A stretch of DNA of 64,000 bases from positions 43,381,451 to 43,445,450 of the forward strand of contig NC_092373.1 of the NCBI RefSeq assembly GCF_030028105.1. The letters are read 5' to 3'. The position numbers and the translations under genes are program-made. The notes below the pieces were generated by a model. It saw only the letters and a program-made list of their open reading frames with translations. It was not told the origin of the DNA and made no database searches. Shown one piece after another: positions 8,740 to 37,652 of the stretch (within the stretch, counting starts at the first letter, position 1; each line of letters opens with the position of its first letter). This DNA is from Mobula birostris. Its lineage: Eukaryota.

Positions 8740-11700
8740 GTTCAGTGAAAAACATATATATCTCCGTCCTAAATCTCCTCCCCTGAATCTTGAGGCAATG
8801 TCCCCTAGCTCTAGTCTCACGTACCGATGGAAACAACTTTCATACTTTTATCTTATCTATCCCTTTCAAAATTTTGTATGTTTCTATAAGATCCCTTCTC
8901 ATTCTTCTGAACTCCAGAGAGTATAGTCCCAGGCAACTCAATCTCTCCTCATAGGTTAACTCCTTCATCCCTGGAATCAACCTAGTGAACCTCCTCTGCA
9001 CTGCCTCCAAAGCCAGTATATCCTTCCTCAAGTATGGAGACCAGAACTGCACACAGTACTCCAGGTGCGGTCTCACCAGCACCCTGTGTAGTTGCAGCAT
9101 GACCTCCCTGCTCTTGAATTTAATCCCTCTAGCAATGAAGGCCAACATTCCATTTACCTTCTTAATAACCTGTTGTACCTGCAAGCCAACTTTTTGCGAT
9201 TCTTGCACAAGCACTCCCAAGTCCCTCTGTACAACAGTATGCTGCAATCTTTCACCATTTAAATAATAATGTGCTCTTCTATTATTCCCTCCAAAGTGCA
9301 TGATCTCACATTTATCAACGTTGTATTCCATCTACCAGACCTTGGCCCACTCACTTAACCTATCTATATCCCTCTGCAGACTCTCCACATCCTCTGTACA
9401 ATTTGCTTTTCCACTCAGTTTAGTGTCATCAGCGAATTTTACTATGCTACACTCAGTCCCCTCTTCAAATCATCAATGTAAATGGTAAACAGCTGTGGGC
9501 CCAGCACCGAACCCTGCGGCACCCCACTCACCACAGACTGCCAACCGGAGAAACACCCATTTATACCAACTCTCTGCCTTCTGTCGGTTAACCAATCGGA
9601 TATCCATGCCAATACACTTCCTCCGACTCCATGCATTTATAAGTCACTTGTGCGGCACCTTATCGAACGCCTTCTGGAAATCCAAGTATATGACATCCAC
9701 TTGTTCCACCTATCCACTGCACTCATTATGTCCTCAAAGAACTTCAGTGAGTTTATCAAACAGGAGTTGCCCTTTCTGAATCCATGCTGTGTCTGTCTAA
9801 TGGAACTACACCTTTCTAAATGCTTCGCTATCTCTTCCTTAATGACAGCTTCACGCATTTGCAGTACTACAGATGTTAAGCTAACTGGCCTATAGTTGCC
9901 TGTCTTTTGCCTACATCCTTTTTAAAAATTGGTGTGACATTTGCTGTCTTCCAGCCTACTGGGACCTGGCCAGGGTCTAGAGAGTTTTGATAAATGATTA
10001 CCAACGTGTCTACTATAACCTACGCCAATTCCTTCAGCACCCTGGGATGCATCCCATCAGGACCAGGGGACTTATCTATCTTCAGGCCCTCTAGTTTGCT
10101 CATCTTTAGTGACAGTGATTTATCGAGGTCCCCACCTCCCACTTCGTCCATGACATCCTCTTCGGCATATTAGACGTGTCCTGCACCGTGAAGACCGACA
10201 GAAAATAGTCTTTCAATGCCTCAGCCATTTCCTTATCACTCAATAGCAATTTCCGCTTCTCGTCTTCCAAGGGACCTACGTTGACTTTAGCCATCCTCTT
10301 CCGCTTTATATATTTATAAAAATTTTTGCAATGTTTTTGTATTTTGTGCTAATTTACTGCTGCACTCTATCTTCCCTTTCCTTATTTCTTGTTTAGTTGT
10401 TTTCTGTTGCTTTTTAAAGTTTTCCCACTGCTCCAGTCTCCCACTACTCTTTGCGAACTTTGTACACGAGCTTTTAATTTGATACTGTCGTATATTTCCT
10501 TAGTTATCTAAGGCTGACTCTCCCCACACTTAATGTCCTTACTTTTGACTGGAATATACTTTTGTTGAGCACTGTGGAAAAATCTCTTTGAAAGTATTCC
10601 ACTGTTCCTCAACTGTCCTACCAAGTGGCCCATCCACATTAGCCAATTCCTCACTCATCCTGTTGTAGTCTCCCTTGTTCAAGCATAATACACTAGTTTT
10701 AGATCTAACTATTTCATCCTCCATCCGAATGCAAAATTCAGTCATACCATGATCACTCTTTCCAAGAGGATCCCTGACTACAAGATCGTTAATCTTACCT
10801 GTGTCATTACACAGGACTAGATCTAAGACAGCATTTTCTCTTGTAGGTTCACTAACATGCTGCTCAAGGATGCATTCAATGAAGTCCTCCTCAAGACTTC
10901 CTTGACCAACCTGATTCACCCAATCTATGTGGAAGTTAAAATCCCCCATGACAACTGCTGTTCCGTTCTTTCAAGCCTCAGTTATTTCTTGGTTAATCGC
11001 CTCTGTCACTGCAATATTTTTATTAGGTGGCCCACAGACAACACTCACCAGTGATTTTTTTTCCCTTTACTGTTCTTAATCTCTATCCAGATGGACTCAA
11101 CATTCTGCTTTGTAGATCTTATATCGTCTCTCACAATCACCCTGATCTCATCCCTAATCAAGAGTACCACTCCACCTCCTCTGCCTTCCTGCCTGTCTTT
11201 CCGTATTAGCTGATACCCTTGGATATTTAATTCCCAGGCATCTCCACTTTGCAACCGGATTTCTGTAATGGCCGCTAAATCACATGCCTTGGTACCACAA
11301 GTTCACTAACCTTGTTTTTAATATTACGGGCATTTAGATAAAGTGCCCTTATACTCATTGTCCTTTTAGAACCTAGTGACCTATGTGATTTTTGCTTTTT
11401 ACTTTTTACTTTTATGTTCTCTACTCTTACTTTTTTCTTCACTAACTCCAGCTTTGGTCTCCGCATCGCTACCCTCTTCTTTTCTGGGTGGGTTCCCATC
11501 CCCCTGCCATATTAGTTTAAAGCCTCCCCAACAGCACTAGCAAACAATCTCCCTAGGACTGAACACAAGGAAATCTGCAGATGCTGGAATTTCAAGCAAC
11601 ACACATAAAAGTTGCTGGTGAACGCAGCAGTCGGGACGAAGGGTCTCGACCTAAAACGTCGACTGTACCTATTCCTATAGATGCTGCCTGGCCTGCTGCG

Positions 11701-12003
11701 TTCACCAGCAACTTTTATGTGTGTCCCTACGACTGATCCCTGCCCTGCCCAGATGTAGACCGTCCGACGGTACTGGTCCCAACTCCCCCAGAAGTGGTTC
11801 CAATGCCCCAAGAATTTGAAACCCACCCTCCTGCACCACTGCTCAAGCCACATATTCATTCTAGCTATCCTACCATTCCAACTCTGGCTAGCATGTGGAA
11901 CTGGTAATAATCCCGAAATGATTACCTTTGAGGTCCTACTCTTTAATTTATCTCCTAGCTCCCTAAATTCAGCTTGTAGGACCTCATCCTGCTTTCTTCC
12001 TGT
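8740..12003 (-). mobile_element. Decayed CR1 LINE (ORF1 esterase to RT C-terminus)
   Basis: Minus ORFs KVIISGLLPVP...GFKFLGHW (ORF1 esterase), [30 protein letters not shown] and RPHLEYCVQFWSP. Confidence 0.9.
11563..11723. mobile_element. Fold-back Penelope-pLTR-like mini-element with degenerate hammerhead
   Basis: TSD tccctaggactga (11550-11562) / tccctacgactga (11724-11736). Inverted arms acacacataaaagttgctggtgaacgcagcag / ctgctgcgttcaccagcaacttttatgtgtgt. Confidence 0.8.
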
Positions 12004-12508
12004 AATGTTCAATTCATTACAGCAGTGCAGTGAGGAAGCATAAATTAAAACATCCACAGAGTGCAGAATCACGAGATTATAAATTGGTTCCGGTAGACTT
12101 GTAATTTGCCTAAAGCTGAAATTATAGATTTCTCTCATTTCTCTCCTGTCCTCCCTCTAAGCTCCCTTTGAGCTTACCATAACTACAAAATCTACCTCCT
12201 GCTCCCTTTCTCTTAACTATATTAAACTGCAGCCCATATTTGCTGACATTGTTAAAGGTTACCTTTCCTCAGGCACTGTTCTCCTTTTAAATCTATACTA
12301 ACCATCCTCCTCAGTAAACAAATTTAGAAGCCACCCCTCCTGCTCAAAACCTTGCAAACCACTGGCCCTCGTCTCAGAATGTTTGTTTAAAATCATTTAA
12401 CCAAAATTCAGTCACAAAATGTGTAATGTGGTTGTAACCAAATTCTTTCGCAACCATTGTTCTTACTTACTGTGCTTTTAAACAAATGGAAACATCCTAT
12501 ACCGATTA

Positions 12509-13074
12509 CCCTCAGTGGCCACTTGTTAGGTACATCAGCACACTGACAAGTATCTAATCGGCCTATCATGTCACAGTAACTCAATGCATAAAAACATGCC
12601 AACATTGTCAAGTGGGCCAGTTGTTGCTCAGACCAAGCATCAGAATGGGGAAGAATTGTGATCTAAGTGACTTTGTGGAATAATTGTTCGTGCTAGATGG
12701 GGTGATATGACTATGTAAGCAATTACTGATCTCCTGGGATTTTTATGCACAACAGTTTACAGTGGATGGAGGTATGGAGTTTACAGAGAATGGTGCAAAA
12801 ATTGAAAACAACATCCTATTAGTGGCAGTTCTGTGGGCAAAAATGCCTTGTTAATGACAGAGGACAGAGTAAAATGGCCAAACTGGTTCAGGTTGACAGG
12901 AAGGCTATAGTAAGTCAAATAATCACACGTTGCAACAGTGGTCTGTAGATCATCATCTCTGCACAACACGTCAAACCTTGAGTGAATAGGCTACAGGAGT
13001 AGAAAACCATGAGCACACACTCAATGGCCACTTTATTAGGTACAGGAGGTACCTAATAAAATGATCACTGAGTG
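12509..13074 (+). mobile_element. Non-autonomous Tc1-like DNA transposon
   Basis: TA-flanked. TIR c(a)ctcagtggccacttt.ttaggtac. Remnant Tc1 N-terminal HTH coding (ATGGGGAAGAA.TGTGATCTAAGTGACTTTG). Extra internal TIR at ~13017-13043. Confidence 0.82.
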
Positions 13075-13129
13075 TATTATATAGGCAATGATCAGTGCCA
13101 GTGCTGGAGAATTTCTGCTACTTTGTGCT

Positions 13130-13465
13130 TCAGTGGAAGACAATTGTGAAAAATCTGCCAAATCAGGTGTTAATAAATCACTCAGAAATCTGGTAGCAGA
13201 GGGGAGGAAGCTGTTTCTAAAATGTTGAGTGTGTCTTCAGTTTCCTGCGTCTCCTCCCTGATGGTAGTAATGAGAAGAGGGCATGCCCTGGATGGTTAGG
13301 ATACTCAGTGATAGATGCTGCTTCCTTAGGAAGATATCCTCAATGGTGGGGAGTTTAGTGCCCCACCCTGGCTGAGGCTACAACCCTCTGAAGCTTTTTT
13401 CGATCCTTTACATTGGAGCTTTCATATCAGGCGGTAATGCAACCAATCAAAACGCTCTCCATGAC
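13130..13465 (-). mobile_element. Rex/Babar-like LINE 3' fragment
   Basis: Similar to 44016-44381 (ggggaggaagctgtt...ctccctgatggtagtaatgagaagagggcatgccctgg). Confidence 0.65.
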
Positions 13466-13599
13466 TGCGCTTGCAAGTGGAACTGCTGGCATTTACCTGC
13501 AGGATCTGATCCAATAATTTCCAGGTATACTGTGACATCCAATGCCATTTCATTTTCACATATATCAACTCCATCTTTGTTTCGTCAAAGTTAAATATT

Positions 13600-14200
13600 A
13601 ATTGAGCAGGAATTTCTTCAAACTAATTACTGACAGTGTCTTCAATCCTAGGTGTGAACTTCATTTCCAAATCTTTTCAAACTTTGGTATAATTTCTAAC
13701 TGAGGATGAACTACGGCAGCACCATGATTATCAATTTCTGCTTTCAAAGTGCCACTTAACTTGACTGTTGTCTCAGCTCACCTGTTCTCTAACAGTCGTC
13801 TATTTATTTAGGGCTCGGGACTCTCCAGGATACCTATCCTTAGTTTACTCTCCGTAAATCTGAGGACATTCAAACTCTGCTGTGTCTGTGCTCAGACTCA
13901 TTCTCATGTAGCTATTGTCACTTTGCTTGATTATCCCTATCTCCCAGTTACACTATGTTCCAATTTTAAAATGCTGATCTATATTTGTAAATCTACGCTC
14001 ATTGATCTTCAACTATTTAACCTTGCATGTTATCTGAGCTCCTCCACTTCTTGGCTTTTTATGTTCCAATTATTCCAGCATCGGCAACTATGCTTTTTGC
14101 TGCCAAGTCTTTTAACTTTAACTTTCTCTGATTCTTTCTGTGCCTCTGTCCCTCTTTCTGTCTTTGAGATGCACTTCTAAACACTTCTTTTATATGTAGT
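13600..14200 (+). mobile_element. Ancient L2-like LINE 3' remnant
   Basis: Weak resemblance to L2 3' region (aattttaaaatgctg..., pyrimidine-rich end). No ORF. Confidence 0.35.
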
Positions 14201-14379
14201 CTTAATAATGTTTTAAGTGGTTTGGAATTGGATTTTGTTTGGTAATGGTCTTCTGAATTGGATCTTGGGATCTTTTGGAACTTCAAAACAGAATCAGCAA
14301 TCCAAGAGATTCCTACATAGTTTTCATCAGAAAATTAATAGTTTCTACAAGAAGATTTATAATTTGATTTTCTTGACAG

Positions 14380-14459
14380 GAATGAATGCATATTCACAAT
14401 TGATCCAGTAACTGCAAGAGATTTGGATGATGCATTATCTTGCCGTGAACTCCCTGATG
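14380..14459 (+). CDS. DIS3L2: DIS3L2 coding exon (80 nt; RNB catalytic aspartate motif)
   Basis: Acceptor ttcttgacag|G and donor G|gtatgt. Translates (R)[26 protein letters not shown](G), the RNase II-family TID..DLDDA motif. Not shown as such in the ORF track. Phase joins both neighbouring exons. Confidence 0.95.
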
Positions 14460-14490
14460 GTATGTTCTTTTTGTTAGCTTTATCTTGTAA

Positions 14491-14570
14491 CAGGGGTTCC
14501 CAGCCTGGGGTCCACAGACCCCTCAGTTAATGGCAGGGGTCCATGGCATAAAAAAGGTTGGGAACCCTTG
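14491..14570. mobile_element. 80-bp hAT (Charlie-like) MITE
   Basis: TIR caggggttcccagcct / aggttgggaacccttg. 8-bp TSD-like flanks tcttgtaa / tcttagaa. Confidence 0.75.
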
Positions 14571-16232
14571 TCTTAGAAATTATTTGATGAAAATCTGTTG
14601 TTATATTTCTTTATGAAACATTATACAAAGTTATAAAAACAGGAATAGAACAAGTGTCTCATCTCTTCTAAGCATTAGTGATTAAAAATATCTATTTATG
14701 AAAATACTAACGTAACTTGTCAGTGAAATAAGCTTTCAGTTGGTTTGATAGAAGTAAAGTTTGTCTTTCCCTTCCATCTCTAGGAAACTTACATTTATAA
14801 TGATCTTGCTTGAAGATGCATGGAATATTTTTTAAAATCAGGACTAGAAGAAGAATGGGAAAAGCTCTGCATGCCTTGCTTATTTTGCATAAGCTGCCTT
14901 TTAGAGATCACCATTAGCGCAGAAGATTCTGCATTGCGAATGTGTAAATGAAACTAAAAAGGAAATATATTAGATGAAATTAACCTGAAATGCAAAATAT
15001 AAGATCAAAGAAATGGATAGCAGGTCAGTCACCATCTGTAAGCCTAGATATGTGACATTTTAGGTGTGCCTTAGCAAAGTCATAATCAGTCTGTTATTGT
15101 TTCAGATAGTTACTGATTCATATCTTTCCTGGGTTAATATTGTGAATGAAGGTAGTTTAGTAGTTTGGCTCTTGTCTGATGATATATGAAGGAAAATATT
15201 CCATTTGTCTTGGGCAGGTTCAGAGAAAAATTACTTCTATTTCCATGCTGACAAATGATGAATGGTCCAGCCGCTATGATTGCATGTCATTACAAGTTAG
15301 TTGATTTCCTGCATGATTGCCAACAATGAGTCAGAGGGTAGAATTTGTCACAACATGAAGATGATATCCTGTTAGTTATTGATGTTGTTGACTTCTTGCC
15401 CTGTGTCTTGCCTAGTAATATTGTGCTGGTAGTTATAGATAATGGCCTCATGTCTTACAATCTTGAATCTGTTAAACTTCTGCTATTTGACAAAATCTTA
15501 AAATTAGTTAGATGCTTACTTTTCTTTACTTGAGGCAAAAGGGTAGTGATTCCTATCAAATGATCCTTTATCAGAGAACTCATAGACATTGGCTTGGCAA
15601 GTTTAAGACAAAAATCCCCAAGTTCACAAGCTGTTAAAGCTGTTACTGAAATTGAATGTTTATGGATGACCTTGTTCACCAATCAACCAAGATGCATTTT
15701 CAAAAATCCTTTTCGAAATTAAAATTAGTTGTAAAACTTAGAATACTAAAGAACACATGCAGTTAAAAATTAAATTTTAAAATTTAAGTCATTTAATTTT
15801 AAAGGATTAATTACTGTTCATCCAGTAGCTATTTCTTAGTTTTGATTGCAGTGGGCTGCATTATGTGGATGATCTAACGTACTCTAAACCCAGTGGGTAT
15901 ATTTCCTTTCCTGAGAACTTGGAAGTCTGACGAAGTTCATGCTGTTCCATTGGAATCAAGTAATAATATTGGATGATGCTGCTGCTTAAATATGCTCCAT
16001 CATTGGATTCATGACAATGGAGAAACAAGGGAAAGCAACCCAAAGCACTGCTGGCTCAATGGTCTCAAAATCTAATGGATCTAAGATTAAACTACCCATA
16101 AAAATCCATAAGCCTGGTCAATTGCTATTGATAGCAATCCTATTGGTTAACAGAAACCTACTGTTTTTCTTAGATACTTAAATCAAAGTATATTACAGGA
16201 TTGGAAGTAGCAGCAAATTTGAATAATGTTCC

Positions 16233-16270
16233 GTGTGCGTGCGTGTGTGTATGTGTGTGTGTGTTTGTGT
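16233..16270. repeat. Imperfect (GT)n microsatellite
   Basis: gtgtgcgtgcgtgtgtgtatgtgtgtgtgtgtttgtgt. Confidence 0.9.
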
Positions 16271-17689
16271 ATTGATTCTCAAAACCATTAGAATTTTATT
16301 CTTGGTCAAAATGATCAGTTTAAACGGCAAATAGTATTTGACATGCCATTGACGTCCAAACATCATTTTAAAAATTCCATATACCCACCACTTTCTAGGT
16401 GCAAAAGTCTCCCCTAAGGTCTCCCTAAGATGTTCCCCTCTTTTTTTAAGCCATGCTCATTGATTTTATTTACTTCTGTAAGGTCACCCCTCAGCTTCTT
16501 ACACTACAGGGAAAACAACGCTAGCCTATTCTGTGTCTCCTTATAACTCAAGCCCTTTGACCCTGGCAATATCATTCTGAATCTTTTCAACACCCTTTCC
16601 AGCTTAATGATATCTTTTCTATAGTTGAGTGACCAGAGCCACACATAGTCTCACTGATGTCTGGCCATTGGTGAGGCTGAATTAGAATGATTTCGTACCT
16701 TTGCATTTTCTTGAGGTAACTTTTCAAATTTTAACCTCTCCATATCCATAACTGCCTGCTACCAGCTCCAAGATGGCCACACCGCACTGTATGTCTGACT
16801 GAAGTCTTTACCCATACTTAATGCATGGACTTTTTCAGGACTCTCGGTCATCCTACCTTTCACCATGTGTTAATTGGAATTCAACACAGAACTCACTCAC
16901 AATATCACAATCCCTTGCACTTGTTGATCTATCCAGGCCCTTTGTTTAGCTACGCCTTATTTTTTATTACTCATTCCTGTGCTGAAGTTATTTAGGCATT
17001 TATCTTCCCTTTCAGCAACCCTCTGTGAATTATGCAATGCTTAAATTCAGGCTTATTGACCACCACTATAACTGCTTTAGCTGTCCACTACCTCTGTCAT
17101 CCCAACATATCCTAAATTTTCTAAAACCTGAACTTTTTGCACTTTCTTCATCTTCTCCGAAGATACTCATTAAATCCTTCCTTCATAATCCAATTTTTAT
17201 CACCTAAATAGATTACCTTTAAGTGGCTGTTTTTGTGTCCAATTTTGTCTGATAACATTCTTATAAAAGTTCTTGATAAAATGGGTAAGGTGGAGGTCGT
17301 GATAATATTGCTAAGAGTCTGTAAGGTAATGGTGTACTCGGTCGCAGTGCCCTCTCGACCCAACCAGTGGTGTACAGTAATTGTTTGTCCTTGATGCCTT
17401 TTTATCAATCACAAAACACTGCTGGATGTTAAGAACATCAGGTACTGCAGGTCTACCTCATCAGTGAGTCGCTGGATAGTGACGGAGCTGGACTTGTTGC
17501 ATACCACCTTGTTGCCAGGATTTGTAGTCTTCCATTGTTGTGCAGAGGCAGTGCGCAGTCCAATAAAGGGTGCAAATGATTACCTTGGATATTTTTATTG
17601 TGATAGTAAGACCCTGTTGGGCATAGGTAACAAAGACAGCAAGTCTTGTTCACTGCTTCATTGGTGACACTGATGGTGGGGGAGCTGCC

Positions 17690-18141
17690 AAGCCTCAGCT
17701 GTTGTGCGGACCAGGCCTTGATGCCGTGGTGACGCTTGTTGCAGCCGCCCAGGAGTGGGTAAGAGCAGAGGTTCGGATGGAGTAGGTACTGGGTTAGGAA
17801 CTGGTCCCTCCCATTGGTGCTGCCCTCCAGTATTCACTCGGTGGAAGACAAGCTGGATTGTGTTTGTCTGTGGCTGCACCAGCAATGAGGAAGAGATGAG
17901 CAACTGCTGCATGCTTGTTCTTGCAGAACTATGGCTCCAGGACAACATCCCATGTCCCATCAATCTTCAGGCCATGTGACTCAGCGACTTTGGCTATATT
18001 ATTTTCTGTGACTGTTTTCTGCTATATGTGCTGTGTGTGTGACTGTTGGTACTGTGATTTGCACCTTGGGCTTGGAGGAATGCTGTTTCATTTGGCTGTA
18101 TTTTTGTGTGTAATTAAAAGACCGTTAAACTTGAACTTGAG
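17690..18141 (+). mobile_element. Internally deleted Rex/Babar-like retroposon
   Basis: Peptide ...NCCMLVLAELWLQDNI resembles the APE N-terminal ETW motif also seen at 41660-41887. Tail aaacttgaacttga. Confidence 0.55.
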
Positions 18142-18630
18142 ATGTTTTACTGTATTTAAGCTATAGTAATGATGCAGATTGTTGTAGTTATTTAAATATT
18201 TGCACTTTGTTACTGATTTTGTTGCTATGGATAATTTCATCATTTAGGACTTGTTCAAGATTTGGAAATCCAGTGGTAAAAATACAACAAAATTAATGAC
18301 TGAAAATCAGTGACGCTCTGATTTTTTTTTGGGAGGCATTTAAGTAGGCTCATGAACAGGCAGGGAACTGAGGGAAATAGACCTCATGGTTGGCACAGAC
18401 ATCATAGGCCAACAGATCAGTTCCTGTGCTGTACTGATTTATGTTTAGGAGCTGGTTTTAAACAAGCCACTGCAAGTTTTTAGGTTAGGTAAGATTTGAA
18501 ATCTTATTTCGTTTAATACTGAATCATTGATTCAAAATATATTGGTTATAAATACATTTAGTAAATTTTCGATGTTCATTATTTATGAAGAATGTATATT
18601 TGGTTAATATTTCTAATGATTTATTTAAAG

Positions 18631-18743
18631 GAAACATGGAGGTTGGAGTGCATATTGCAGATGTGAGTTACTTTGTTCGTGAAGGGACTGCCGTTGATGA
18701 AATTGCCAGCAAGAGGGCAACCAGTGTCTACCTAGTTCAGAAG
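18631..18743 (+). CDS. DIS3L2: DIS3L2 coding exon (113 nt)
   Basis: Acceptor tttaaag|GA and donor AAG|gtaatg. Translates (G)NMEVGVHIADVSYFVREGTAVDEIASKRATSVYLVQK (RNB VHIADV and R.TSVY motifs). Confidence 0.95.
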
Positions 18744-19427
18744 GTAATGCATACAAAGATTGACCTTTGCTCTAAAGAACCGACAAGTGATGGAATACCT
18801 GTAATTATTTTGGTGGACATGATTAGGAACTACATTTATAATAGTGGTGGGCATTTTTATGATGATATCATCTAGTTCTCCACCACCCATGTTCACCTGA
18901 CCCCATTAACTAGTTTGCCTCAGTCATCATCATTGACATCACATACCACATTCTACCACTCTCTGATTAAATAAGTTCCTTTTGAATTCTCTCTGGATTT
19001 ATTAGTGACCATCTTGGATTTGTGGGCCCTTGTTTGAGACTTGTCTGTAAATGGAAATATTTTCCCAAACAATGTTTGAGGTAATCAGAGGGTTGTGTGA
19101 CTGTGGAAGGAGTTGCCAGTAGAAGTGGTAGATGCAGGTTCAGTTGTAGGACAGGTACATGGATAAGTGGGGCATGGAGATCAATGGACTGGGTGCAGGT
19201 ACGTGGGATGAGGCAGAAGACCAGGTTAGCACAGACTGGATGGGTCAAAGTCCCTGTTTCTGTGGTGTATTACTCCGTGACTAATGCTGTTTTAAAATGT
19301 TTGAGTAGTTAAGAAGTCTCAGCTTGAGAGTTATAACCTCCCCTTGTGGTATAAATTTTGCAAACCTGGGACCTTGTGGTATAATTTTTGTAAAGCTAGG
19401 TTATATAATTTGCAAAATGTCTCTGAT

Positions 19428-20321
19428 TTCAAAGGTTCATCAAAGCATGTACCCATATACAACTCTAAAATTTGTCTTCTCCAGATAGCCAGGAAACAAA
19501 GAAAGAACATGAAAGTTGTTCAGAGGGAAACATCAAACCCCACCCCCCACACAAAAAAGGAATAGCATCCCAATCATTCACCCCCTCACCCTACACAAAA
19601 CGGAACAGGAACATCACCCCCCATAAAACAACTCTTCCCCCCGCCCCAACAAAAAAAGCTAACAGGACGCAACGGAAGATCAACCTGTAAACACCCTCCT
19701 CTCGCACAACAAAACGGAAAAGGAACGGGCGATAAAGAGCACACAACATAAAAACCATAAGTCTGAAAAAGTCCACAGTCCGTAAATGCAATAGTCCAAT
19801 CCATAAACACAGAACCATGATACCATCCCCCGATATCACTGACATTCATCAAAAGAGAGGGACACCACACAAGGCAGAGAGGCCTACCTGCCTGTCACAG
19901 CAAGCCACACAGCAATAGGCTGCTCACACATTCCTTCTCCGGCAGCGATCAGAAGGAAAGCGGTCGGTGCGGAACTCTAGCTCACCTTCTCTTTTCGCTT
20001 CGATGTCTCAATCTTCCTCAGTGCTTTAATTGGCGATTAATTAACGCTTTAACCAGCGAAATGGAGTCAAACATCAGCTCGCACCCGTCTTGGAGTTTCT
20101 TTGCATCAAGGCCGTATGAGTACGCGCTCGCTTCCTGGAATCTTCTCAGAGACAGCAAAGTAATGGATCACTTAAATGATCTCCCAACAGCAATTCACAG
20201 TCTCTGACAGTCCCAGAAACACATTTAAGGTGAAAAGCAGATGTAAAAGAGTGAAAAAGACATTTTTGTGAGCTATCTGGAAAATGCTGATCGAGGGAGT
20301 GTTGTATGCTGACGCCATCTG
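19428..20321 (-). mobile_element. Non-autonomous retroposon with 5' AGATGGCG and short-repeat tail
   Basis: gacgccatct at 20311-20320 is the 5' end on the minus strand. GT-rich body. Tail near 19430. Confidence 0.5.
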
Positions 20322-20679: not shown

Positions 20680-21445
20680 CATGAGAATTATCTACAGCTT
20701 AATGTGAAAAAGACTAAAGAGCTGGTGGTAGACCTGAGGAGGACTAAGGCACCGGTGACCCCTGTTTCCATCCAGGGGGTCAGTGTGGACATGGTGGAAG
20801 ATTACAAATACCTGGGGATACGAATTGACAATAAACTGGACTGGTCAAAGAACACTGAGGCTACCTACAAGAAGGGTCAGAGCCATCTCTATTTCCTGAG
20901 GAGACTGAGGTCCTTTAACATCTGCGGGATGATGCTGAGGATGTTCTATGAGTCTGTGGTGGCCAGTGCTATCATGTTTGCTGTTGTGTGCTGGGGCAGC
21001 AGGCTGAGGGTAGCAGACACCAATAGAATCAACAAATTCATTCGTAAAGCCAGTGATGTTGTGGGGATGGAACTGGATTCTCTGACGGTGGTGTCTGAAA
21101 AGAGGATGCTGTCCAAGTCGCATGCGATCTTGGACAATGTCGCCCATCCACTACATAATGTACTGGTTGGGCACAGGAGTACATTCAGCCAGAGACTCAT
21201 TCCACCGAGATACAACACAGAGTGTCATAGGAAGTCATTCCTGCCTGTTGCCATCAAACTTTACAACTCCTCCCTTGGAGGGTCAGACACCCTGAGCCAA
21301 TAGGCTAGTCCTGGACTTATTTCCTGGCATAATTTACATATTACTATTTAATTACTTATGGTTTTATTACTATTTATTATTTATGGTGCAACTGTAAGGA
21401 AAACCAATTTCCCTCGGGATCAATAAAATATGACTATGAATATGA
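20680..21445 (+). mobile_element. Rex/Babar-clade LINE 3' fragment with an uninterrupted 199-aa ORF
   Basis: KTKELVVDLRR...YKYLG..IDNKLDW...LYFLRRLRSF...FYESVVAS (RT C-terminal, DUF1891-like). Tail caataaaatatgactatga. Confidence 0.85.
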
Positions 21446-25399: not shown

Positions 25400-25830
25400 T
25401 GGAAATGGCTGTTACAGTGGCTCTTATAATATACAAGATATTAAGAGGAATAGATAGGGTGGACTCGCCAGTGCCTTTTCCCCAGGGCACCACTGCTCAT
25501 GGCTTTAAGGTAAGGGGTGAGAAGTTCAAGGAGGATATTAGAAGAAGTTTTTTTTACTCAGAGAGTGGTTGGTGCTTGGAGTGCACTGCCTGAGTCAGTG
25601 GTGGAGGCAGATACACCGGCCCACAATGTTGTGCCTACCCTCAAACCTTGCTTCTCATATAACCCCCCACCTTAAATTCCTCCATACACCTGTCAAGTAG
25701 TCTCTTAAATTTCACTAGTGTATGGAGGAATTTAAGGTGGGGGGGTTATATGAGAAGCAAGGTTTGAGGGTAGGCACAACATTGTGGGCTGAAGGGCCTG
25801 TACTGGGCTGTACTATTTTATGTTGTGGGC
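25400..25830 (+). mobile_element. CR1 3' end containing an internal inverted duplication
   Basis: [11 protein letters not shown]...HGFKVRGEKF. Same subfamily as the 30768-31130 3' end. Confidence 0.8.
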
Positions 25831-26150: not shown

Positions 26151-26329
26151 ATGCCTTCTGTGCACCACAATTCCTATGGGGACGTTTTGTGGGTGAGAGA
26201 GTTCAAAATATCTGAGCATGGGCCATCAGGACATTTTGCGTGCCATTGTTCCTGAAGAGGTATTGGATTGTGCATAATTAGGGACTTGGCAAGGGCCAAT
26301 AAAAAGAAGTTGAGTTTAAGTGGAGTGGC

Positions 26330-29112
26330 CATTGTTGGAACATCCATTGTGTGAGTGGGTCAGTGTTAGAGTGGGGAATTGAGGCTTTGGCCTCAATTTA
26401 GGCAGGAGCTGTAGGTAGATGTTTTTGTTTATTCTTAAAGTTTTCTTTCCTTCTGATTACATATTTACGGCATTGGGGATGGCAGGCAGGATAGTGGAAT
26501 GCTCGTCTTATGGTATGTGGGAAGGCAGGAAGACCTCCAGTGTCCCTGACGACTACACCTGCAAGAGGTGTATCCTGCTGCAGCTTCTTTCAGACCGTAG
26601 TAAAGAATTGTCAAGAAATTGGAGCTAGAACTAGATGAACTCCGAATCATTTGGGAAGCTGAAGGGCTGATCGACAGGAGATAGAGGGAATCAGCTATAC
26701 CCAAGGTGCAGGGACACAAGTATTAGGTGACTGTCAGGAGGAGGAAAGGTAATAGAGTACCCTTGTAGCCATTCCCCTCAGAAACAAGTATAGTTTATTT
26801 TGAATATTGTTGGGAGATAACCTAGTAGGGGAAAGCCACAACGGTCAGCTCTCTGGCACTAAGTTTGGCTCTGTGACTTAGAACAGGAGTGGGGAGAAGA
26901 GGTGAGCTGTAGCGATGCAGTTCCTCATTGGTTTGGGAAACAGACAGGAGGTTCTGTGAACAAGAACTTGATTCCTGGATGGTATGTTGCCTCTCATGTT
27001 CCATGGTCAAGGACATCTCAGATTGAGTCCACAGCATTCTGAAGTGGGAGGCTGAGCAAACAGAGATTATGGTCCCTGTAGGTACCAATAACAGGAAGAA
27101 TTCTGAGGTTCTGCAAAGTGAGTCAAGAAGTTAGGTACTAACGTAAAGGACAGGACCTCCAGGGTTGTGATCTCAGGATTGCTACCTGTGGCACTTGCTA
27201 GTGAGGCCAGAAATAGAAAGATCATACAGTCTAAAACGTGGCTAAGGAGATGGTGCAGGAGGGAGGACTTCAGATTTTTGGATCACTGGGTTCTGTTCCA
27301 GGGAATGTGTACAGAAGGGATGGTCCGCACCTGAACTGGAGGGGGACTAATATCCCTGCAGGAATGTTAGCTAGTGCTGCACGAGGAAGTTTAAATTAGA
27401 GTTGCAGGAGAATGGGAACCAGACTGCCGGAACAGATAGAGGAGGGGTTGTGGAGACAGATTCTGTTAAAACCTCAGACAAAGTCAGCAATCAAAGGGTT
27501 GAACATGGTGGGATTAATGTTCTGAGTTGTGTGTATTTCAATGCAAGGAGTATTGTAGGAATGGTGGATGAGTTTAGTACATAGTTCAGCACATGGAATT
27601 ATGACATTGTACCATTAGTGAGACCAGGTCTGGCATCTCAGTGTTCCATGATTCCGTTGATGTAGACATGATAGAGTGGAAGAGATTAAAAAGGGAGGGG
27701 TGGCATTACTAGTCAGGGAAAATGTCACAGTGCTTAGACAGGACAGACTGGAGAGTTCATCCACTGAGGCTATATGGGTGGAACTGAGGAATATAACTCA
27801 GGAAGGGGATGACCACGTTAGTGGTACTATATTATAGACTACTCAACAGTCCTTAGGATTTAGAGGAGAAAATTTGTTGAAAGATCACAGACCTTTGCAA
27901 GAAAAATAAGTTTGTTGGATCAGAATCAGGTTAATTATCAACAGCATGTATCCTGAAATTTGTTCACTTAGCAGCTGCAGTACAATGCGATATATGATAA
28001 TATAAAAAGAATAAATAAATTACAGTAAGTCAGTAAGACAAGAATCAGCATGGGAGGCTGGTTAAGAAGGCTCAGTCACTTGGCATTCAGGATGAGGTAG
28101 TAAATTGCATTAGACATCGGTTTCGCAGGAGAAGTCAGAGTGATAGCAGATGGTTGCCTCACTGACTGAAGGCCTGTGTCTGGTGGTGTGCCACAAGGAT
28201 TGGTACTAGGTCATTTGCTGTTTGTCATCTCTCTCAATGATCTGGATGATAATGTGGTAAACTGGATTTTCAATTTGCAGATGCCACCGAGATTGGGGGT
28301 GTAGTGAACAGTGAAGAAGACTTTCAAAGCTTGCAGTGGGATCTGGACTAGCTGGAAAAATGGGCTGAAAAGTTGGAGATGAAATTTAATGCAGACAAGC
28401 ATGAGGTGTTGCATTCTTTGGAAAGACAAACCAGGGTAGAATTCAAATAGTGAGCAGTAGGGCACTGAAGCATGTGGTAGAACAGGGAGATCTGGGAATA
28501 TGGATTCGTAATTCCTTGTAAGTGGTGTCACAGGTAGGTGGGATTGCAAAGATAGCTTTTGGCACAGTGATCTTCATAAATCAAAGGAGTACAGGAGATG
28601 GAATGTTATGTTGATATTGTATAAGATGTTGGTGAGACCTAATTTCTACTATTGTGTGCAGGTTTGGTCACCTACTGATGGGAAGGATGTCAAATAGGTT
28701 GAAAGTGTGCAGAGAAAAATTAAAACGATGTTGCTGGGACTTGAGACCTGAGTTAAGGGAAAGGTTGGTTAGGACTAGGGTAAATGCAAGAAGGCTTTTT
28801 CCTCTGAGGGTGGGTGAGACTAGAACTAGTAGCCATTGGATAAGGATGAAAGGTTGAAAAGTTTGAGAGGAATCTGAAGTGGAGCTTCTTATCTCAGACA
28901 GTATTGAGAGTGTAGAACAAGCTGTGGGTGGAAGTGGCAGATACAGGCTTGTTATTAACATTTAAGATAAGTTTGGATAAGTACGCAGGTGAGAGGGGTG
29001 TGGAGGGCTATGATCTGGGTGCAGGTCGATGGGACTCGGCAGATTAATGGTTTGGCAAGAACTAGATGGGCCAAAGGACCTGTTTCTGTGTGTAGTGTTC
29101 TATGACTCTGAC
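26330..29112 (+). mobile_element. Decayed, internally deleted CR1 LINE including ORF1 N-terminus
   Basis: MAGRIVECSSYGMWE...YTCKRC (ORF1 Cys-rich), esterase remnants, YFNARSI and RT remnants. Tail tctatgactct. Short Rex-type tail fragment at ~27915-28030. Confidence 0.8.
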
Positions 29113-29644
29113 TTAAATGGGGTTAAGAAGGATGATAAATGAGCCATGGTGTAATGTCGGAGTAGACTTAATGGGCTGAATGGCCTAATTTGCTCCTATG
29201 TCTTATGATTTGATGGTCTTGTATTTTAATGAACACGATGCAATCAGAGTTTTCCCCTGATAACTCCCTTCGCCAAAATAGCTTACCTCTGGATATTTTG
29301 CGGTTGCAGTAATTCCAAAGCATAAATGGAATTTTGAACACTATTTTATGGCAGGAAGCATTTTTTCCCACTTACATGCCTAAACAAAGCAATATGTTTT
29401 TCCATAAAAAATATTATCCTACAGGTTTTGTTCATAGGTTTCAAGATGTCACTCAAGTGTTTCTTGGAATCCAGTAAGTTCAGCTCAAGTGATGGCACTG
29501 AAACATCGTGCAGCTGATCTCTGCTGTTGCTCATGTAGTTGAATGGTAATAGCAAAATGATCACAGGTGCAACAACTGTGATTCAGATATACTGTACACT
29601 AATAGAAATGGCCATTTTCTCATCTTCTTTAGGTACTAATTTTA

Positions 29645-30478
29645 TTTCTCAGATTCATTTATTTATCACATATACATCAGAACATACAGGGAAATGTGTC
29701 ATTTGTGTTAACAGCCAACACAGCCCTAAGAATGTGCTGGGGGCGATCACAAGTGTCAACCTCAGGTATGTGCTAGGGGCAGATCACAGGGTCATCTCAC
29801 ATTCCGGCACCAACATAGCATGCCCACAATGTTCAGCAGAACAACACAAGAAATAGCAACAAAACTAGGCCTTTTCTTCCCTCCTACTAGGCCTTTTCTT
29901 CCCATCTACTCATACACACCGATATGACCCCACCTCCAGGCCACCAATCTCCAGCGGACTCTCAGACTGCCAGACATTGGGCCTCTGATTCTCCCAGTGG
30001 ACTCGCAGACATCGGGCCTCCGACTTCTGCACAAGTGACTCAAGGGCTTTGAATATTGGGCTTCGGCTTCTGAACTCACCAACTGGGAGGTCACCAACTC
30101 ACCAACCTCGTGCCTCCTGCTTGCATGGACCTCCTATCTAGGGACCTAATGACATGGATAGGTCACCAACCCTCATCCAAGGGGCCTACCAGCCTCTGCC
30201 ATTGTCCATGGAGATTGCTGTTCTTCATCAGCAGTCCCTGCTGACCTGACATACAGTATGTCCTTGAAGATCGCTGGCCTTTGACTGTGGAGCACTCTGA
30301 CCTGAACTACAGCCACAGGCTCCTACCCCTAATCTCTAACTCTCTCATATCTCTGTCCCTAAACCTTAATCTGACCCCTGACTCCCTGTGCTGTCTACAA
30401 AGCTATCCGTACAAACTTAGTAAACAACTAAGACTGAATCACGACCTTGACGGACATCGCAGCTCAGCACCATCTTGA
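29645..30478 (-). mobile_element. Non-autonomous retroposon (5' AAGATGG, AATAAA/gaatct tail)
   Basis: caccatcttg at ~30468-30477 and tcagattcatttattt at ~29649. Same architecture as 24290-24928. Confidence 0.45.
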
Positions 30479-31707
30479 ATGGAAGAATTTCTCATTTCAT
30501 TTAAGTATTCAAAGAAATGGCTCAATTTTTGCAAGAATTAACTGCACAAAATAATTCACCTGAGTATACTGTCGCTCACATCACCTCCTCTTCCTGTGCC
30601 TGCCACTAATTGTGTAGTAACTAATTCTAGTTTAAGTTAATCTTTATCTTTTTTTTCTAATGCTGAATGACCACCCTTATTATTAAATAGGTTCTCTTTC
30701 AGTTTGTAAATAACCTATTAAGTCTGTATATTTAAGGTTTATATATCCTGTTTTGTACTGATTTGGTTTGAACATTGAACATAGGATAATACAGCACAGT
30801 ACAGCCCCTTCGGCCCACAATGTTGTGCTGACCCTTAAACCCTGCCTCCCATATAACCCCACACCTTAAATTCCTCCATATACCTGTCTAGTAGTCTCTT
30901 AAATTTCATTAATATATCTGCCTCCACCACTGACCCAGGCAGTGCATTCCACGCACCAACCATTCTCTGAGTAAGAAACCTTCCTCTTATATCCCCCTTG
31001 AACTTCCCACCCCTTACCTTAAAGCCATGTCCTCTTGTATTGAGCAATGGTGCCCTGGGGAAGAGGTGCTGGCTATCCACTCTATCTATTCCTCTTAATA
31101 TTGTGTATACCTCTATCATGTCTCCTCTCATCCTCTTTCTCTCCAGAGAGTAAAGCCCTAGCTCCCTTATCTGTGATCATAATGCATACTCTCTAAACCA
31201 GGCAGCATCCTGGTCAATCTCCTCTGTACCCTTTCCAATGCTTCCACATTCTTCCTATAGTGAGGTGACCAGAACTGGACACAGTACTCCAAGTGTGGCC
31301 TAACCAGAGTTTTATAGGGCTGCATCATTACCTCGTGACTCTTAAACCCTATTCCTCGATTTATGAAAGCTAACATCCCATAAGCCTTCTTAACTACCCT
31401 ATCTACCTGTGAGGCATGTACCCCCAGATCCCTCTGCTCCTCCACACTACCAAGTATCCTGCCATTTACTTTGTACTCTGCCTTGGAGTTTGTCCTTCCA
31501 AAGTGTACCAGCTCACACTTTTCCAGGTTGCACTCCATCTGCCACTTCTCAGCCCACTTCTGCATCCTATCAATGTCTCTCTGCAATCTTTGACAATCCT
31601 CTACACTATCCACAAAACCACTAACCTTTGTGTTGTCTGCAAACTTGCCAACCCACCCTTCTACCCCCACATCCAGGTCGTTAATAAAAATCACGAAAAG
31701 TAGAGGT

Positions 31708-33573
31708 CTTCGTTACTCTCCTGTTTTAGCCAGCTCTCAGGCTATAAACTGAATTTACATAAGAGTGAACTTTTTCCTTTGAATAATTGGATATCAACTA
31801 ATTCTAACCTTATGTTTAAAATTGTGAGAAACCAACTTACTTAGGTACAACAATTACTAAAAATTGTAAGTACTTATTTAAAGAAAATTTTCTTACCCTA
31901 TTAAATTATGTAAAAAGGACACTATCAAATTGGTTGCCTCTCGTTATCATTGATTGGTCGAATTAATTCTATTAAAATGAATATTTTACCTAAATTTATA
32001 TATCTTTTTAAGGCATTGCCTGTTTTTATCCCTAAATCTTTTTTTGATTCTCTTGATTCTATTATATCATCCTATATATGGAAAAATAAGCGTCCTAGAC
32101 TAAGCAAAATTCATCTTCAGAAAGCTAAAAAGAATGGAGGCCTAGCTTTACCAAACTTTAGGTTTTATTATTGGGCGGTTAATATACGTAATCTTACATT
32201 TTGGTTATATTACATTAATCGTAAGGATTGTCCGATGTGGGTTTCTTTAGAAGCTAACTGTTAATAAATTTGCTATTATTTCTCCTCTTGGACCCTCACG
32301 TCCTTTATCCCTGAGTAAGTTAACTGACAATTTGGTAGTTAAACATACAATGAGAATGTGGGTACAATTCCGAAAATACTTTGGCTTCTTGAGATTTTCT
32401 CTTTCAAGTCCCATTTTTTCTAATTAGTTTTTTAAATCTTCTATGATAGATGTAGCTTTTAAAGAATGGGATAGATTGGGTATTAAATGCTTCCAGGACT
32501 TGTTTGTGGAGGAAAGTCTCCTTTCGTTTGAGCAACCGTCAGCTAAATATAGCTCACTTTTTTCGATACCTACAAATAAGAGGCTTTTTACAGTCTCAAA
32601 TATGTACATTTCCTAAAAGTCCTGATAAAAATCTACCAGATGTAATTTTTAATTTGAAACCTTTTTATAATAGATCTATACCTAATATTTATAATATGTT
32701 GCTGGGAATGAGAAGTGTTCCTTTAGATAAAATTAAAAATCTTTGGGAACAAGACTTACAGACTTCAATTTCTGAGGAAACTTGGAATGAAATTTTTAAA
32801 TTGGTTAATATTTTATCGTTATGTGCTCACCGCTCTCCCCTACAATTTAAAACGGTCCATAGGGCCCATATGACCAAGGATAAGTTGTCTCACTTTTATT
32901 TGGATATATCTCCTGATTGTGATAAATGCAATAATGGAGAAGCTTTTTTCATTCATATGTTTTGGACATGTCTGAGTCTTGAAAAATATTGGAAAGAAGT
33001 ATTTCAAACCTTCTCGGTACTTTTTAAAGTAAATTTAAGCCTAATCCTTTGACTGCTTTATTTGGTATTGTTGGAGGAAAGGATATTTTGGAGAAATCTG
33101 ATTTGCATATTTTGGCTTTTATTTCTGTTATGGCTAGGAGGCCGTTTTTGCTTAAATGGAAAGATGCAGTTCCGCCCACTCATGTTAAATGGCTGCGTGA
33201 TGTGATGTCATGTTTAAATTTAGAGAAGATTCGGTGTTCAATTTTTGAATCCAGTCAAGACTTTCAAACTTTGTGGGGACCTTTTTTGAACTATTTTCAA
33301 AACCTTTGATTTGCCGTTAAAGCACAGATGATGGCTAATAATATACTTCTTTTTTCTTCTTCACTAATCAGCTTCGGTCTTGGTAGTGAGTTAGGGTTAT
33401 TTTCCATATAATAAATTTACTATATTTCAATATTATGAATTAATCAATTTGTATGAATATAGAGCAAGGAGTTTGTATGTGCGATTCAGTATAATATATT
33501 TGATATATTTCTTTTTTCTTAAACTCTGTATTCTTCTATGCAGAAAATTAATAAAAATATTGAAAAAGAAAAA
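31708..33573 (+). mobile_element. 5'-truncated L1-clade LINE nested in CR1
   Basis: 12-bp TSD aaaagtagaggt (31696-31707 / 33574-33585). AATAAA plus poly(A). ORF2 fragments GRINSIKMNILPKFIYLF, GGLALPNFRFYYWA and CDKC...HMFWTC. Confidence 0.92.
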
Positions 33574-34571
33574 AAAAGTAGAGGTTCTAGAACCGATTCG
33601 TGTGGGACACCACTAGTCACAACCCTCCAATCCGAATGTACTCCCTCCACCACGACCCTCTGCTTTCTGCAGGCAAGCCAGTTCTGAATCCACCTGGCCA
33701 AACTTTCCTGGATCCCACGCCATCTGACTTTCTGAATAAGCCAACTGTGTGGAATCTTGTCAAATGCCTTACTAAAATCCATGTAGATCACATCCACTGC
33801 ACTACCCTCATCTATATGCCTGGTCAACTTCTCAAAGAACTCTTATCAGGCTTGTTAGACACGATCTGCCCTTCACAAAGCCATGCTGACTGTCCCTGAT
33901 CAGACCATGATTCTCTAAATGCCCATAGATCTTATCTCTAAGAATCTTTTCCAACAGCTTTCCCACCACAGACGTAAGGCTCACTGGTCTATAATTACCC
34001 GGACTATCCCTACTACCTTTTTTGAACAAGGGGACAACATTCGCCTCCCTCCAATCCTCCGGTACCGTTCCCGTGGACAATGAGGACATAAGGATCCTAG
34101 CCAGAGGCTCAGCAATCTCTTCCCTTGACTCGTGGAGCAGCCGGGGGAATATTCCGTCAGGCCCCGGGGACTTGTCCGTCTTAATGTATTTTAACAACTC
34201 CAACACCTCTTCTCCCTTAATATCAACATGCTCCAGAACATCAACCTCTCTCATATTGTCCTCACCATCATCAAGTTCCCTCTCACTGGTGAATACCAAA
34301 GAGAAGTATTCAGTGAGGACCTTGCTCACTTCCACAGCCTCCAGGCACATCTTCCCACTTTTATTTTTAATTGGTCCTACCTTCACTCATGTCAGCCTTT
34401 TGTTCTTCACATAATTGAAGAATGTCTTGGGGTTTTCCTTTACCCTACTCGCCAAGGCCTTCTCATGCCCCCTTCTTGCTCTTCTCAGCCCCTTCTTAAG
34501 CTCCTTTCTTGCTACCCTATATTCGTGAATAGACCCATCTGATCCTTGCTTCCTAAACCTCATGTATGCTG

Positions 34572-34660
34572 ACGAAGGGTATCGGCCTGAAACGTCGACT
34601 GTACCTCTTCCTATAGATGCTACCTGGCCTGCTGCATTCCACCAGCATTTTGTGTGTGTT
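34572..34660 (+). mobile_element. 89-bp hammerhead-core mini-insertion
   Basis: Perfect 14-bp TSD cctcatgtatgctg (34558-34571 / 34661-34674). Core ctgacga-agg-gtatcgg-cct-gaaa-cgtc-gactg. Confidence 0.85.
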
Positions 34661-35473
34661 CCTCATGTATGCTGCCTTCTTCCATCTGACTAGATTTTCC
34701 ACCTCACTTGTCACCCATGGTTCCTTCACCCTACCTTTATCTTCCTCACTGGGACAAATTTATCCCTAACATCCTGGAAGAGATCCCTAAACATCGACCA
34801 CATGTGCATAGTACATTTCCCTGCAAAAACATCATCCCAATTCATGCCTGCAAGTTCTAGCCTTATAGCCTCATAAATTGCCTTCCCCCAATTAAAAATT
34901 TTCCTGTCCTCTCTGATTCTATCCTTTTCCATGATAATGCTAAAGGCCAGGGAGCGGTGGTCACTGTCCCCCAGATGCTCACCCACTGAGAGATCTGTGA
35001 CCTGACCCAGTTCATTACCTAATACTAGATCTAGTATGGCATTCCCCCTAGTCGACCCGTCAACATACTGTGACGGGAATCCGTGTTGGACGTACTTAAC
35101 AAACTCTGCCCCGTTTAAACCATTGGAATTAATCGGGTGCCAATCAATATTAGGGAAGTTAAAGTCACCCATGATAACAACCCTGCTATTTTTGCACCTT
35201 TCCAAAATCACCTTCCCAACCTGCTCCTCAGTATCTCTGCTGCTACCAGGGGGCCTATAGAATACTCCCAGTAAGAGTAACTGCTCCCTTCCTGTTCCTG
35301 ACGTCCACCCATACTGACTCAAAAGAGGATCCTGCTGCATTACCCACCCTTTCTGTAGCTGTAATAGTATCCCTGACCGTAATGCCACCCCTCTTCCCCT
35401 TTTCCTCCCTCTCTATCCCTTTTAAAGCACTGAAATCCAGGAATATTGAGAATCCATTTCTGCCCTGGTGCCA

Positions 35474-35635
35474 ACAACAGGAACTCTGCAGATGCTGGAA
35501 ATTCAAGCAACACACATAAAAGTTGCTGGTGAACGCAGCAGGCCAGGCAGCATCTCTAGGAAGAGGTGCAGTCGACGTTTCAGGCCGAGACCCTTCGTCA
35601 GGACTAACTGAAGGAAGAGTGAGTAAGGGATTTTC
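35474..35635 (-). mobile_element. 162-bp Penelope-pLTR-like mini-element
   Basis: Perfect 15-bp TSD tctgccctggtgcca (35459-35473 / 35636-35650). Contains a complete hammerhead motif. Confidence 0.85.
35569..35606 (-). ncRNA. Minimal type I hammerhead ribozyme motif
   Basis: Minus strand reads UAGUC-CUGACGA-AGG-GUCUCGG-CCU-GAAA-CGUC/GACUG. This gives both conserved boxes, helix I (UAGUC:GACUG), helix II (AGG:CCU), palindromic ACGU helix III and a GUC cleavage triplet. Confidence 0.78.
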
Positions 35636-37652
35636 TCTGCCCTGGTGCCAGCCAAGTTTCTGTAATGGCCACTACATAATAATTCCATGTACGTATCCAA
35701 GCTCTCAGTTCATCACCTTTGTTCCTGATGCTTCTTGCGTTGAAGTACATGCACTTTAGCTCTTCTACCTTACTACCTTTACACCTTTTATTCTGCTTCT
35801 TTTTCCTCGAAGCCTCTTTATATGTTAGATCCGGCTTTACTCCATACAGTATACTTGCAATTCTTGCATGACCTTTATCCTCCTCCACCTCACTATGTGC
35901 TCTAACACTCTGGTTCCCCTCCCCCTGCAAATCTAGTTTAAACCCCCCGCGCCCCCCCCCCCCCCCGGAGCAGCACTAACAAACCTTCTCACAAGAATGT
36001 TTGTCCGCCCCCCCAGTTCAGGTGCAAACTGTCCCGTTGGAACAGGTCCCACCTTCCCTGGAACAAGGCCCAATTGTCCAGAAACATGAAGCCCTCCCTC
36101 CTGCACCAACTCCTTAGCTATGTACTTAGCAGAATTATCTTCCTATCTCTAGCCTCACTAGCACGTGGCATAGGTAACAATCCTGATATTGCAACCTTGG
36201 AGGTCCTGTCCTTCAACTTTGCACCTAACTCCCTAAACTCTTTTTGCAGGGCCTCCTCCTGCTTCCTATCCACGTCATTGGTCCCTACATGGACCATGAC
36301 CTCCGGCTGCTCACCTTCCCTCTTGAGAATACTGAGAACTCGATCCGAGATATCGCGGACCTTGGCACCAGGGAGCCAACAGACCATCCAGGATTCTTGA
36401 TCTCTCCCACAAAACCTCTTATCTGTCCCCCTAACTATCGAATCCCCTAAAATTACTGCTCTCCTCTTTTCCCTCCTTCCCTTATGAGCTGAGGGTCCAG
36501 TCTTGGTGCCAGAGATGTGATCACTGCAACTTGTCTCTGGTAGCTCATCCTCACCAACAGTACCCAAAACGGTATACTTATTATTGATGGGAATGGCCCT
36601 TTCCCTCTCCTGACTGTCACCCAGCTACCTGTCTCCTGACTTATAGGAGTTTGCAAATCAGATTCTCAGCATGTTTGTTGTGTGTTTGTCAGCAAAATAG
36701 CGCTATCTTGATCTATTCTTGAAATTCCAGAACTTTTGATCATATCCCAGTCTTGCCTTTCTTGCATGTATCATTGAATTTTGCTGCCTCAGGGTGGCTT
36801 AAGATTCCTCAGCAAAGGTAGCTTACCAAAGCACATTGATAATTATTTCATATTTTTGCTATTGTTTTCCTATGATATGGAAGGAGGTCACTTGGCCCAT
36901 TCACTTTATACTACTCTCAAAACAATACCATCATTTTCATTCCCCTGTTATTTCCTTAGAGCTACATTGTAACTGTAATCAAATTGCAAAATGTAGGAAA
37001 ATCCTTAAAATTGACCTGATAGTGAAATAAATTAGATGTTTGTCATATTTTAGTTAGAGACACCGTTGCTTTTTATGTTTTCAAATATTTGTTGAAGTCA
37101 TTTAAATTCTTCATTAAAATGAAAGGAAACAGTTAATAAACATTGTGGTTCATGACTGAGTCTGCAATGCTAATTTACATGGACTGATAATCTGTTTCCC
37201 AACTGAGAAGGAGTCTTTGAGGAGCTGAAAGAAAACCTTTCTCATATCCTGTGAAGCTAGAAAAAGGATAAAATGTGTCAGTGCATGTTTTATCGCCTGC
37301 TGAGTAATTGATTGTGTTACTGGTATAGCAGCTTTATTATCCATGGGTAGGCAAGGCCAGCTCCATATTTTCTAATGATGACATTCATAATAAGTCAAAC
37401 AAGAAATACAGCATCGTTTTTCAGTCAATTCTTTAAAAATGAGGAAAAATTATAACATTCATTTTGGCATGAACCATATTCTCTTTAACAATATACTTGT
37501 AATTAGTCAGTTCCTCTTTTAAAGTGGCATATATTTGCTGTCTCCTTTACAATACTATATCTGTGTATTAGAGGATCATACAAAGATGCGAACTGTCAAG
37601 TTGCAGAAAATAATATCGAAAGGAAAAGACCATAAGGTCCCGCTGGTATATA

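Follow-up and report, generated by a model that had tools for sequence, protein, structure and literature searches.

The four inserts and their insertion sites

The stretch of DNA analysed here (the window) comprises 64,000 nucleotides of the ray Mobula birostris (contig NC_092373.1, positions 43,381,451 to 43,445,450, forward strand). It contains three related short inserts, E1 (11563-11724), E2 (34572-34660) and E3 (35474-35635), which we treat as candidate fragments of a Penelope-like element (PLE), together with the long interspersed nuclear elements (LINEs) that host them. blastn against E3 gives E-values of 2e-36 to 6e-31, and over shared columns the identities are 87/94 for the forward arm of E1 with E3, 81/91 for E2 with E3 and 78/91 for the forward arm of E1 with E2. 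A first interpretation made from the letters alone (the sequence-only reading) had described three insertions; all three are present, but an older fourth copy, E4, which is 82/120 identical to E3, had been missed. Two further stretches, 15018-15064 (minus strand) and 58531-58589 (plus strand), both outside CR1 sequence, are possibly very decayed relatives (nhmmer E about 0.003, near noise); neither enters any count, since one of them scored no better than a stretch at 41121 that seems unrelated.

E1, E2 and E3 are flanked by target-site duplications (TSDs) of 13 bp with one mismatch, 14 bp and 15 bp, respectively. When the identical search was applied to 1500 random sites, a score of at least 10 was reached at four of them and a score of at least 14 at two. 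The E2 and E3 sites are empty in another CR1 copy within the window, where the flanks are continuous with a single 13-14 bp overlap, and the E1 insert is absent from two other LINE copies within the window. The blastn matches, the TSD search and these empty sites confirm three related inserts with TSDs of 13-15 bp. The three target sequences are unrelated to one another. At the 5' end of E2 there is microhomology, in that the last three bases of the left TSD are also the first three of the ribozyme core. E4 has a probable TSD at 7914-7926 and 8055-8067 (9 exact, 11/13). As the sequence-only reading had stated, no poly(A) occurs on the inserts; the longest A run is 3-4. The coordinates of the inserts, their parts and their hosts are collected in Table 1.

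Table 1. Positions of the inserts, their parts and the LINE sequences that host them, in window coordinates.
Feature	Positions	Strand	Remarks
E4, older copy	7927..8054	-	ends at B with tail; core decayed; outside CR1
CR1-type LINE region hosting E1	8741..12156	-	insertion within esterase-like ORF1
E1 left TSD copy	11550..11562	+	13 bp, 1 mismatch against right copy
E1 inverted arm	11563..11630	-	3' end of pLTR and 36-nt tail (11563-11598); ends at B; 64/68 identical to E3
E1 forward arm	11631..11724	+	hammerhead region with damaged core; ends at A without tail
E1 right TSD copy	11724..11736	+	first base common to element end
CR1-type LINE copy hosting E2 and E3	33573..36624	-	
E2 left TSD copy	34558..34571	+	14 bp, perfect
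E2 pLTR fragment	34572..34660	+	starts in ribozyme core; ends at A without tail
E2 right TSD copy	34661..34674	+	
E3 TSD copy beside element 3' end	35459..35473	+	15 bp, perfect
E3 tail	35474..35509	-	36 nt, between 3' positions A and B
E3 pLTR body	35510..35635	-	
Predicted minimal type-I hammerhead in E3	35570..35605	-	descriptor; layout of the minimal hammerhead consensus in the PMC4209133 supplement
E3 TSD copy beside element 5' end	35636..35650	+	

Two fixed 3' ends and the composite structure of E1

Aligned in the ribozyme-sense orientation, the pieces are co-linear. E1, taken by the sequence-only reading for a single 161-bp unit, is in fact a head-to-head composite of an inverted 68-nt piece and a forward 94-nt piece. 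The two arms are identical at 32/32 shared nucleotides, which makes the inverted arm a second copy of the element's 3' end; twin priming by LINEs would invert upstream sequence instead.

With the E1 arms counted separately there are five 3' ends, and all five fall at two positions: position A bounds the E1 forward arm and E2, and position B bounds the E1 inverted arm, E3 and E4. The two positions are 36 nt apart and lie 64 and 100 nt downstream of the predicted ribozyme cut site. Under a null of uniformly placed ends, a two-position pattern arises in 463/400000 cases for a 100-nt range and in 6574/400000 for a 40-nt range. The claim of different end points therefore holds for the 5' ends but fails for the 3' ends. 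The cut site itself (the equivalent of 35574) is used by none of the ten ends (0/5 5' ends and 0/5 3' ends).

The predicted hammerhead ribozyme

Two descriptor scans of the whole window each returned a single minimal hammerhead, in E3. Its helix I pairs 35605-35602 with 35573-35570 (4-5 bp) and is followed by the core CUGACGA (35601-35595) and an unpaired A; helix II has 4 bp with a 4-nt loop (35593-35582) and is followed by GAAACGUC (35581-35574), with no helix III and a predicted cut after 35574. The layout makes E3 a predicted minimal hammerhead fitting the PLE consensus of PMC4209133, with a G-U in place of the G-C pair at the base of helix II. The motif is intact in one of the four copies: both core boxes carry changes in E1, E2, which starts within the core, has no 5' strand of helix I, and the core of E4 has decayed. 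The earlier description of the family as hammerhead-bearing thus applies fully to E3 but not to the others. Rfam gave no hammerhead family among its nine matches in the window, nor among the two matches in 35500-35660; the motif has no helix III, so the ribozyme call rests on the descriptor rather than on a covariance model.

Origin of the inserts

We propose that the inserts are solo pseudo-LTR (pLTR; LTR, long terminal repeat) fragments inserted by the protein of a PLE of the endonuclease-bearing kind, and we put the probability of this origin at roughly 0.83. The sequence shows that cuts staggered by 13-15 bp produce the TSDs and that copying begins at one of the two fixed sites about 36 nt apart, passes through the uncut ribozyme and ends 70-160 nt on. 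Each cut end of E1 carries a copy, one from A and one from B, joined head-to-head, probably the outcome of priming at both nicks. By extension from the in vitro behaviour of an anole PLE, a GIY-YIG/reverse transcriptase (RT) protein would nick and extend both strands and start reverse transcription inside the RNA at A or B. The ribozyme would be a passenger of the pLTR that is not needed for insertion, and the template would be transcribed from an autonomous PLE at some other place in the genome. The copies may be dead ends whose sources span more than one subfamily: they are 7-14% apart while the TSD pairs differ at only 1/42 positions, which points to several source elements. The sequence-only reading had offered truncated Penelope pLTRs as one of two explanations; the two discrete 3' ends and the head-to-head inverted copy, neither of which it had seen, speak for that one.

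The published anatomy of PLEs agrees with this origin in several respects. PLE insertions are 5'-truncated, often have an adjacent inverted truncated copy and may carry a tail of 30-40 bp at one end (PMC8557442; the tail also in PMC11167929). The 36-nt tail found here corresponds to that optional tail, two ends lying at A and three at B, and the inverted arm of E1 (one of four insertions) corresponds to the adjacent inverted copy, duplicating the 3' end and containing no upstream sequence. Endonuclease-bearing PLEs (Penelope/Poseidon and Neptune) have a minimal type-I hammerhead near the 3' end (PMC4209133) and share with the inserts 5' truncation, TSDs and the lack of poly(A) (PMC8557442, PMC3846280). 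Rotifer PLEs form solo pLTRs and inverted truncated copies and also have TSDs, of 8-10 bp (PMC3846280), and the minimal hammerheads of PLE repeats are mostly found singly and scattered, and are ascribed to truncated PLEs (PMC4209133). Penelope is also listed for the whale shark genome (PMC8455134), which we count in favour of this origin. No cartilaginous fish appears among the ribozyme rows of the PMC4209133 supplement in its accessible part, where a text search for shark and two genus names was blank, and two short motifs and four genus names had no match in the accessible PMC8557442 supplement. A search of the literature on hammerheads and Penelope in cartilaginous fishes or Mobula gave no description of this insert family or its ribozyme, most subscription papers and the repeat databases lying outside its coverage.

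The closest mechanistic parallel is PAc, the Poseidon element of Anolis carolinensis. Its protein nicks and extends both strands, and two adjacent internal RT start sites downstream of the hammerhead bound the tail, like A and B (PMC11167929). Uncut RNA is its main substrate in vitro, which matches the absence of insert 5' ends at the cut site (PMC11167929). The PAc ORF starts in stem II, whereas the ATG downstream of the E3 ribozyme reaches a stop after 15 codons, and PAc targets ATT (PMC11167929), whereas no shared ATT target occurs at the five junctions here. The stretch 35474-35540 (minus strand), which spans end A and the tail, has a predicted stem-loop fold (z only -1.06) that places end A close to the loop, similar to the one at the PAc initiation site.

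Several observations weigh against a PLE origin. The TSDs are 13-15 bp, against 8-10 bp in rotifer PLEs (PMC3846280), and the PAc initiation sites are AC-rich (PMC11167929) whereas the sense-strand ends here are GU-rich. A six-frame motif scan of the window, which would miss decayed ORFs, found no convincing PLE RT or GIY-YIG motif, linked or otherwise, and three protein searches with two translated E3 frames (sense frames 0 and 1, 2/6 frames) returned no RT/GIY-YIG protein; a linked PLE ORF is not expected on fragments as short as E1-E4. The predicted folds are no more stable than shuffles (z -1.06 to +0.95), and no helix pair is changed on both sides in the five rows, 21/22 cells being paired; these two results and the lack of an Rfam match leave the ribozyme call resting on motif layout. 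Three of the four outer 5' ends, those of E1 forward, of E2 and of E4, map to E3 positions 31-40, at helix I and the CUGA core. Such clustering (three of four ends within 7 nt) arises in 17824/400000 or 2212/400000 cases under the null, that is 0.6-4.5%, in a post hoc comparison with n=4, and it is not predicted by random truncation.

The 5' clustering is what another template for the same PLE protein would give, namely a discrete short RNA of about 95 or 130 nt running from the first strand of the ribozyme to A or B. This RNA could belong to a non-autonomous solo-pLTR element, or copying could start internally in the upstream pLTR and run off at a fixed 5' terminus of the RNA. There are precedents, as non-autonomous PLE derivatives have been described (PMC8557442) and in a rotifer the pLTR sequence alone mobilised unrelated DNA in trans (PMC3846280). 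E3, however, is 30 nt longer than such a template and runs that far beyond the clustered 5' ends, the upstream sequence is also present in a Mobula gene model, as far back as about E3 position 22, and the inverted arm of E1 ends at position 95. The pattern involves only four outer ends and was tested after it had been seen, and no A and B box pair for RNA polymerase III and no tRNA gene is present. We give this template, a short non-autonomous RNA moved by PLE protein in the manner of a short interspersed nuclear element (SINE), a slim chance.

The same earlier reading had considered retrozymes, in which hammerhead-cut tandem repeats are circularised and reverse-transcribed by a PLE, so that the inserts would be monomers. 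Metazoan non-LTR retrozymes are, like the inserts, non-coding, carry a type-I hammerhead and are related to PLE pLTRs (PMC7229834; bioRxiv 10.64898/2026.07.22.740005), and dispersed retrozyme monomers exist. The 2026 preprint reports them in the one chondrichthyan that it sampled, with a mean consensus of 363 bp, and derives them from PLE pLTRs (bioRxiv 10.64898/2026.07.22.740005), which weakens the novelty in cartilaginous fishes that had been suggested for the inserts. Retrozymes are defined by tandem units, at least two of them with complete ribozymes, and by expressed circular RNA; the 20 tandem-repeat rows of the window include no tandem array of the unit. The copies are co-linear, without circular permutation; no 5' or 3' end lies at the cut site; the ribozyme is of the minimal PLE type and not the canonical type of the PMC7229834 retrozymes; and three of the four copies lack an intact hammerhead. 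A retrozyme origin is thus very improbable. The inserts look ordinary rather than like a new ribozyme-based element.

CR1 hosts and target choice

E1, E2 and E3 all lie in LINEs that we take to be CR1 from their ORF layout and from general knowledge of the family, not from a repeat library. The hosts contain pieces of an esterase-like ORF1, an endonuclease and an RT, the esterase and RT matches being below the Pfam curated cut-offs. As the sequence-only reading had it, E2 and E3 occupy one LINE copy; they are 813 bp apart and in opposite orientation, E2 between the endonuclease and the RT and E3 in the 5' part of the endonuclease domain. Random draws place two of n insertions within 900 bp of each other 8% of the time for n=3 and 16% for n=4, so the closeness of E2 and E3 is not significant.

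The CR1 share of the window is 24-32% at the protein level, a measure adopted because iterated tblastx climbed to 48-51% by taking in other repeats. At this share, the finding of all three young copies in CR1 has P 0.014-0.033. Once E4, which is outside CR1, is counted (at least three of four in CR1), P rises to 0.046-0.10, so that targeting of CR1 is neither supported nor excluded, and the earlier caution that the overlap may only reflect CR1 abundance was reasonable. In the whale shark genome CR1 makes up 21.78% (PMC8455134).

The young copies in CR1 and the TSDs of 13-15 bp are also what might be seen if the inserts were a SINE or a processed RNA that CR1 or some other LINE mobilises and that inserts preferentially into CR1. 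We find this scarcely credible: the inserts have no tRNA head, no A and B box pair and no poly(A), their only strong blastn matches in a CR1-rich window are one another and E4, the inverted arm of E1 is a second copy of the 3' end, in contrast to the products of LINE twin priming, the three target sequences are unrelated and E4 stands outside CR1.

Related sequence in Mobula gene models

The translation of E3 recurs in predicted host proteins. It matches 36/37 residues in the STARD3NL isoform X3 model of Mobula hypostoma and 27/31 residues in the CoA synthase model of Mobula birostris, and a third, unnamed protein (P0003) also carries it. The search with sense frame 0 gave two matches among 18 candidates, both host-gene models, sense frame 1 gave none (0/6), and an all-library phmmer search gave four matches, two of them with the element peptide; the other two were dropped as unrelated repetitive proteins. 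The presence of the translation in three predicted proteins indicates that members of the insert family sit at other loci and have become part of predicted exons, which suggests exonisation or mis-prediction in the gene models P0001, P0002 and P0003. The P0003 match starts at an intron-end-like site by the first strand of the ribozyme, and the P0001 match starts further upstream. The 30 nt upstream of helix I in E3 are pyrimidine-rich and appear to resemble the 3' end of an intron, with an acceptor-like site at 35610-35608; in the Penelope element of Drosophila virilis an intron ends at helix I (PMC4209133).

It is conceivable, though we regard it as unlikely, that the mobulid PLE pLTR is a discrete short mobile unit, copied from the two PLE start sites to a fixed end at the first strand of the ribozyme. 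That fixed end would be set by an RNA 5' end or by a splice acceptor, and not by random truncation or ribozyme cutting.

Other repeats in the window

Two related long foldback elements, internally inverted and resembling miniature inverted-repeat transposable elements, lie at 2438-3056 (between CR1 pieces) and 53633-54161. Long hairpin inverted repeats at 25619-25789 (related to 30778-30917), 54926-55160 and 13013-13079 are the source of sub-threshold Rfam microRNA matches, and at 63516-63786 a 35-bp unit is tandemly repeated (7.7 copies, 86% matches). The stretches 20978-21443 and 56759-57232 are 92% identical copies of another LINE-like 3' end, whose associated frame 20665-21303 matches Pfam ALKBH8_N, and a reading frame at 32456-33052 (plus strand) with a weak zf-RVT match is presumably the end of an L1/Tx1-type element.

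Significance

In most respects the result is routine repeat annotation, adding a PLE family in a ray. If the pLTR did prove to be a discrete unit, PLEs would have a non-tandem, SINE-like companion that differs from retrozymes and supplies exons to host genes, and its copies would amount to an extensive natural archive of how PLEs prime on both strands and of where their RNA starts. E1 is of modest value as a genomic illustration, in little space, of the PLE mechanism put forward from in vitro work: it has both initiation sites, on opposite strands, within 162 bp between the copies of a 13-bp TSD. Where PLE RNA starts and what purpose the ribozyme serves are open questions in PMC11167929 and PMC8557442, and the grouping of 5' ends where the ribozyme begins, if borne out genome-wide, would inform both.

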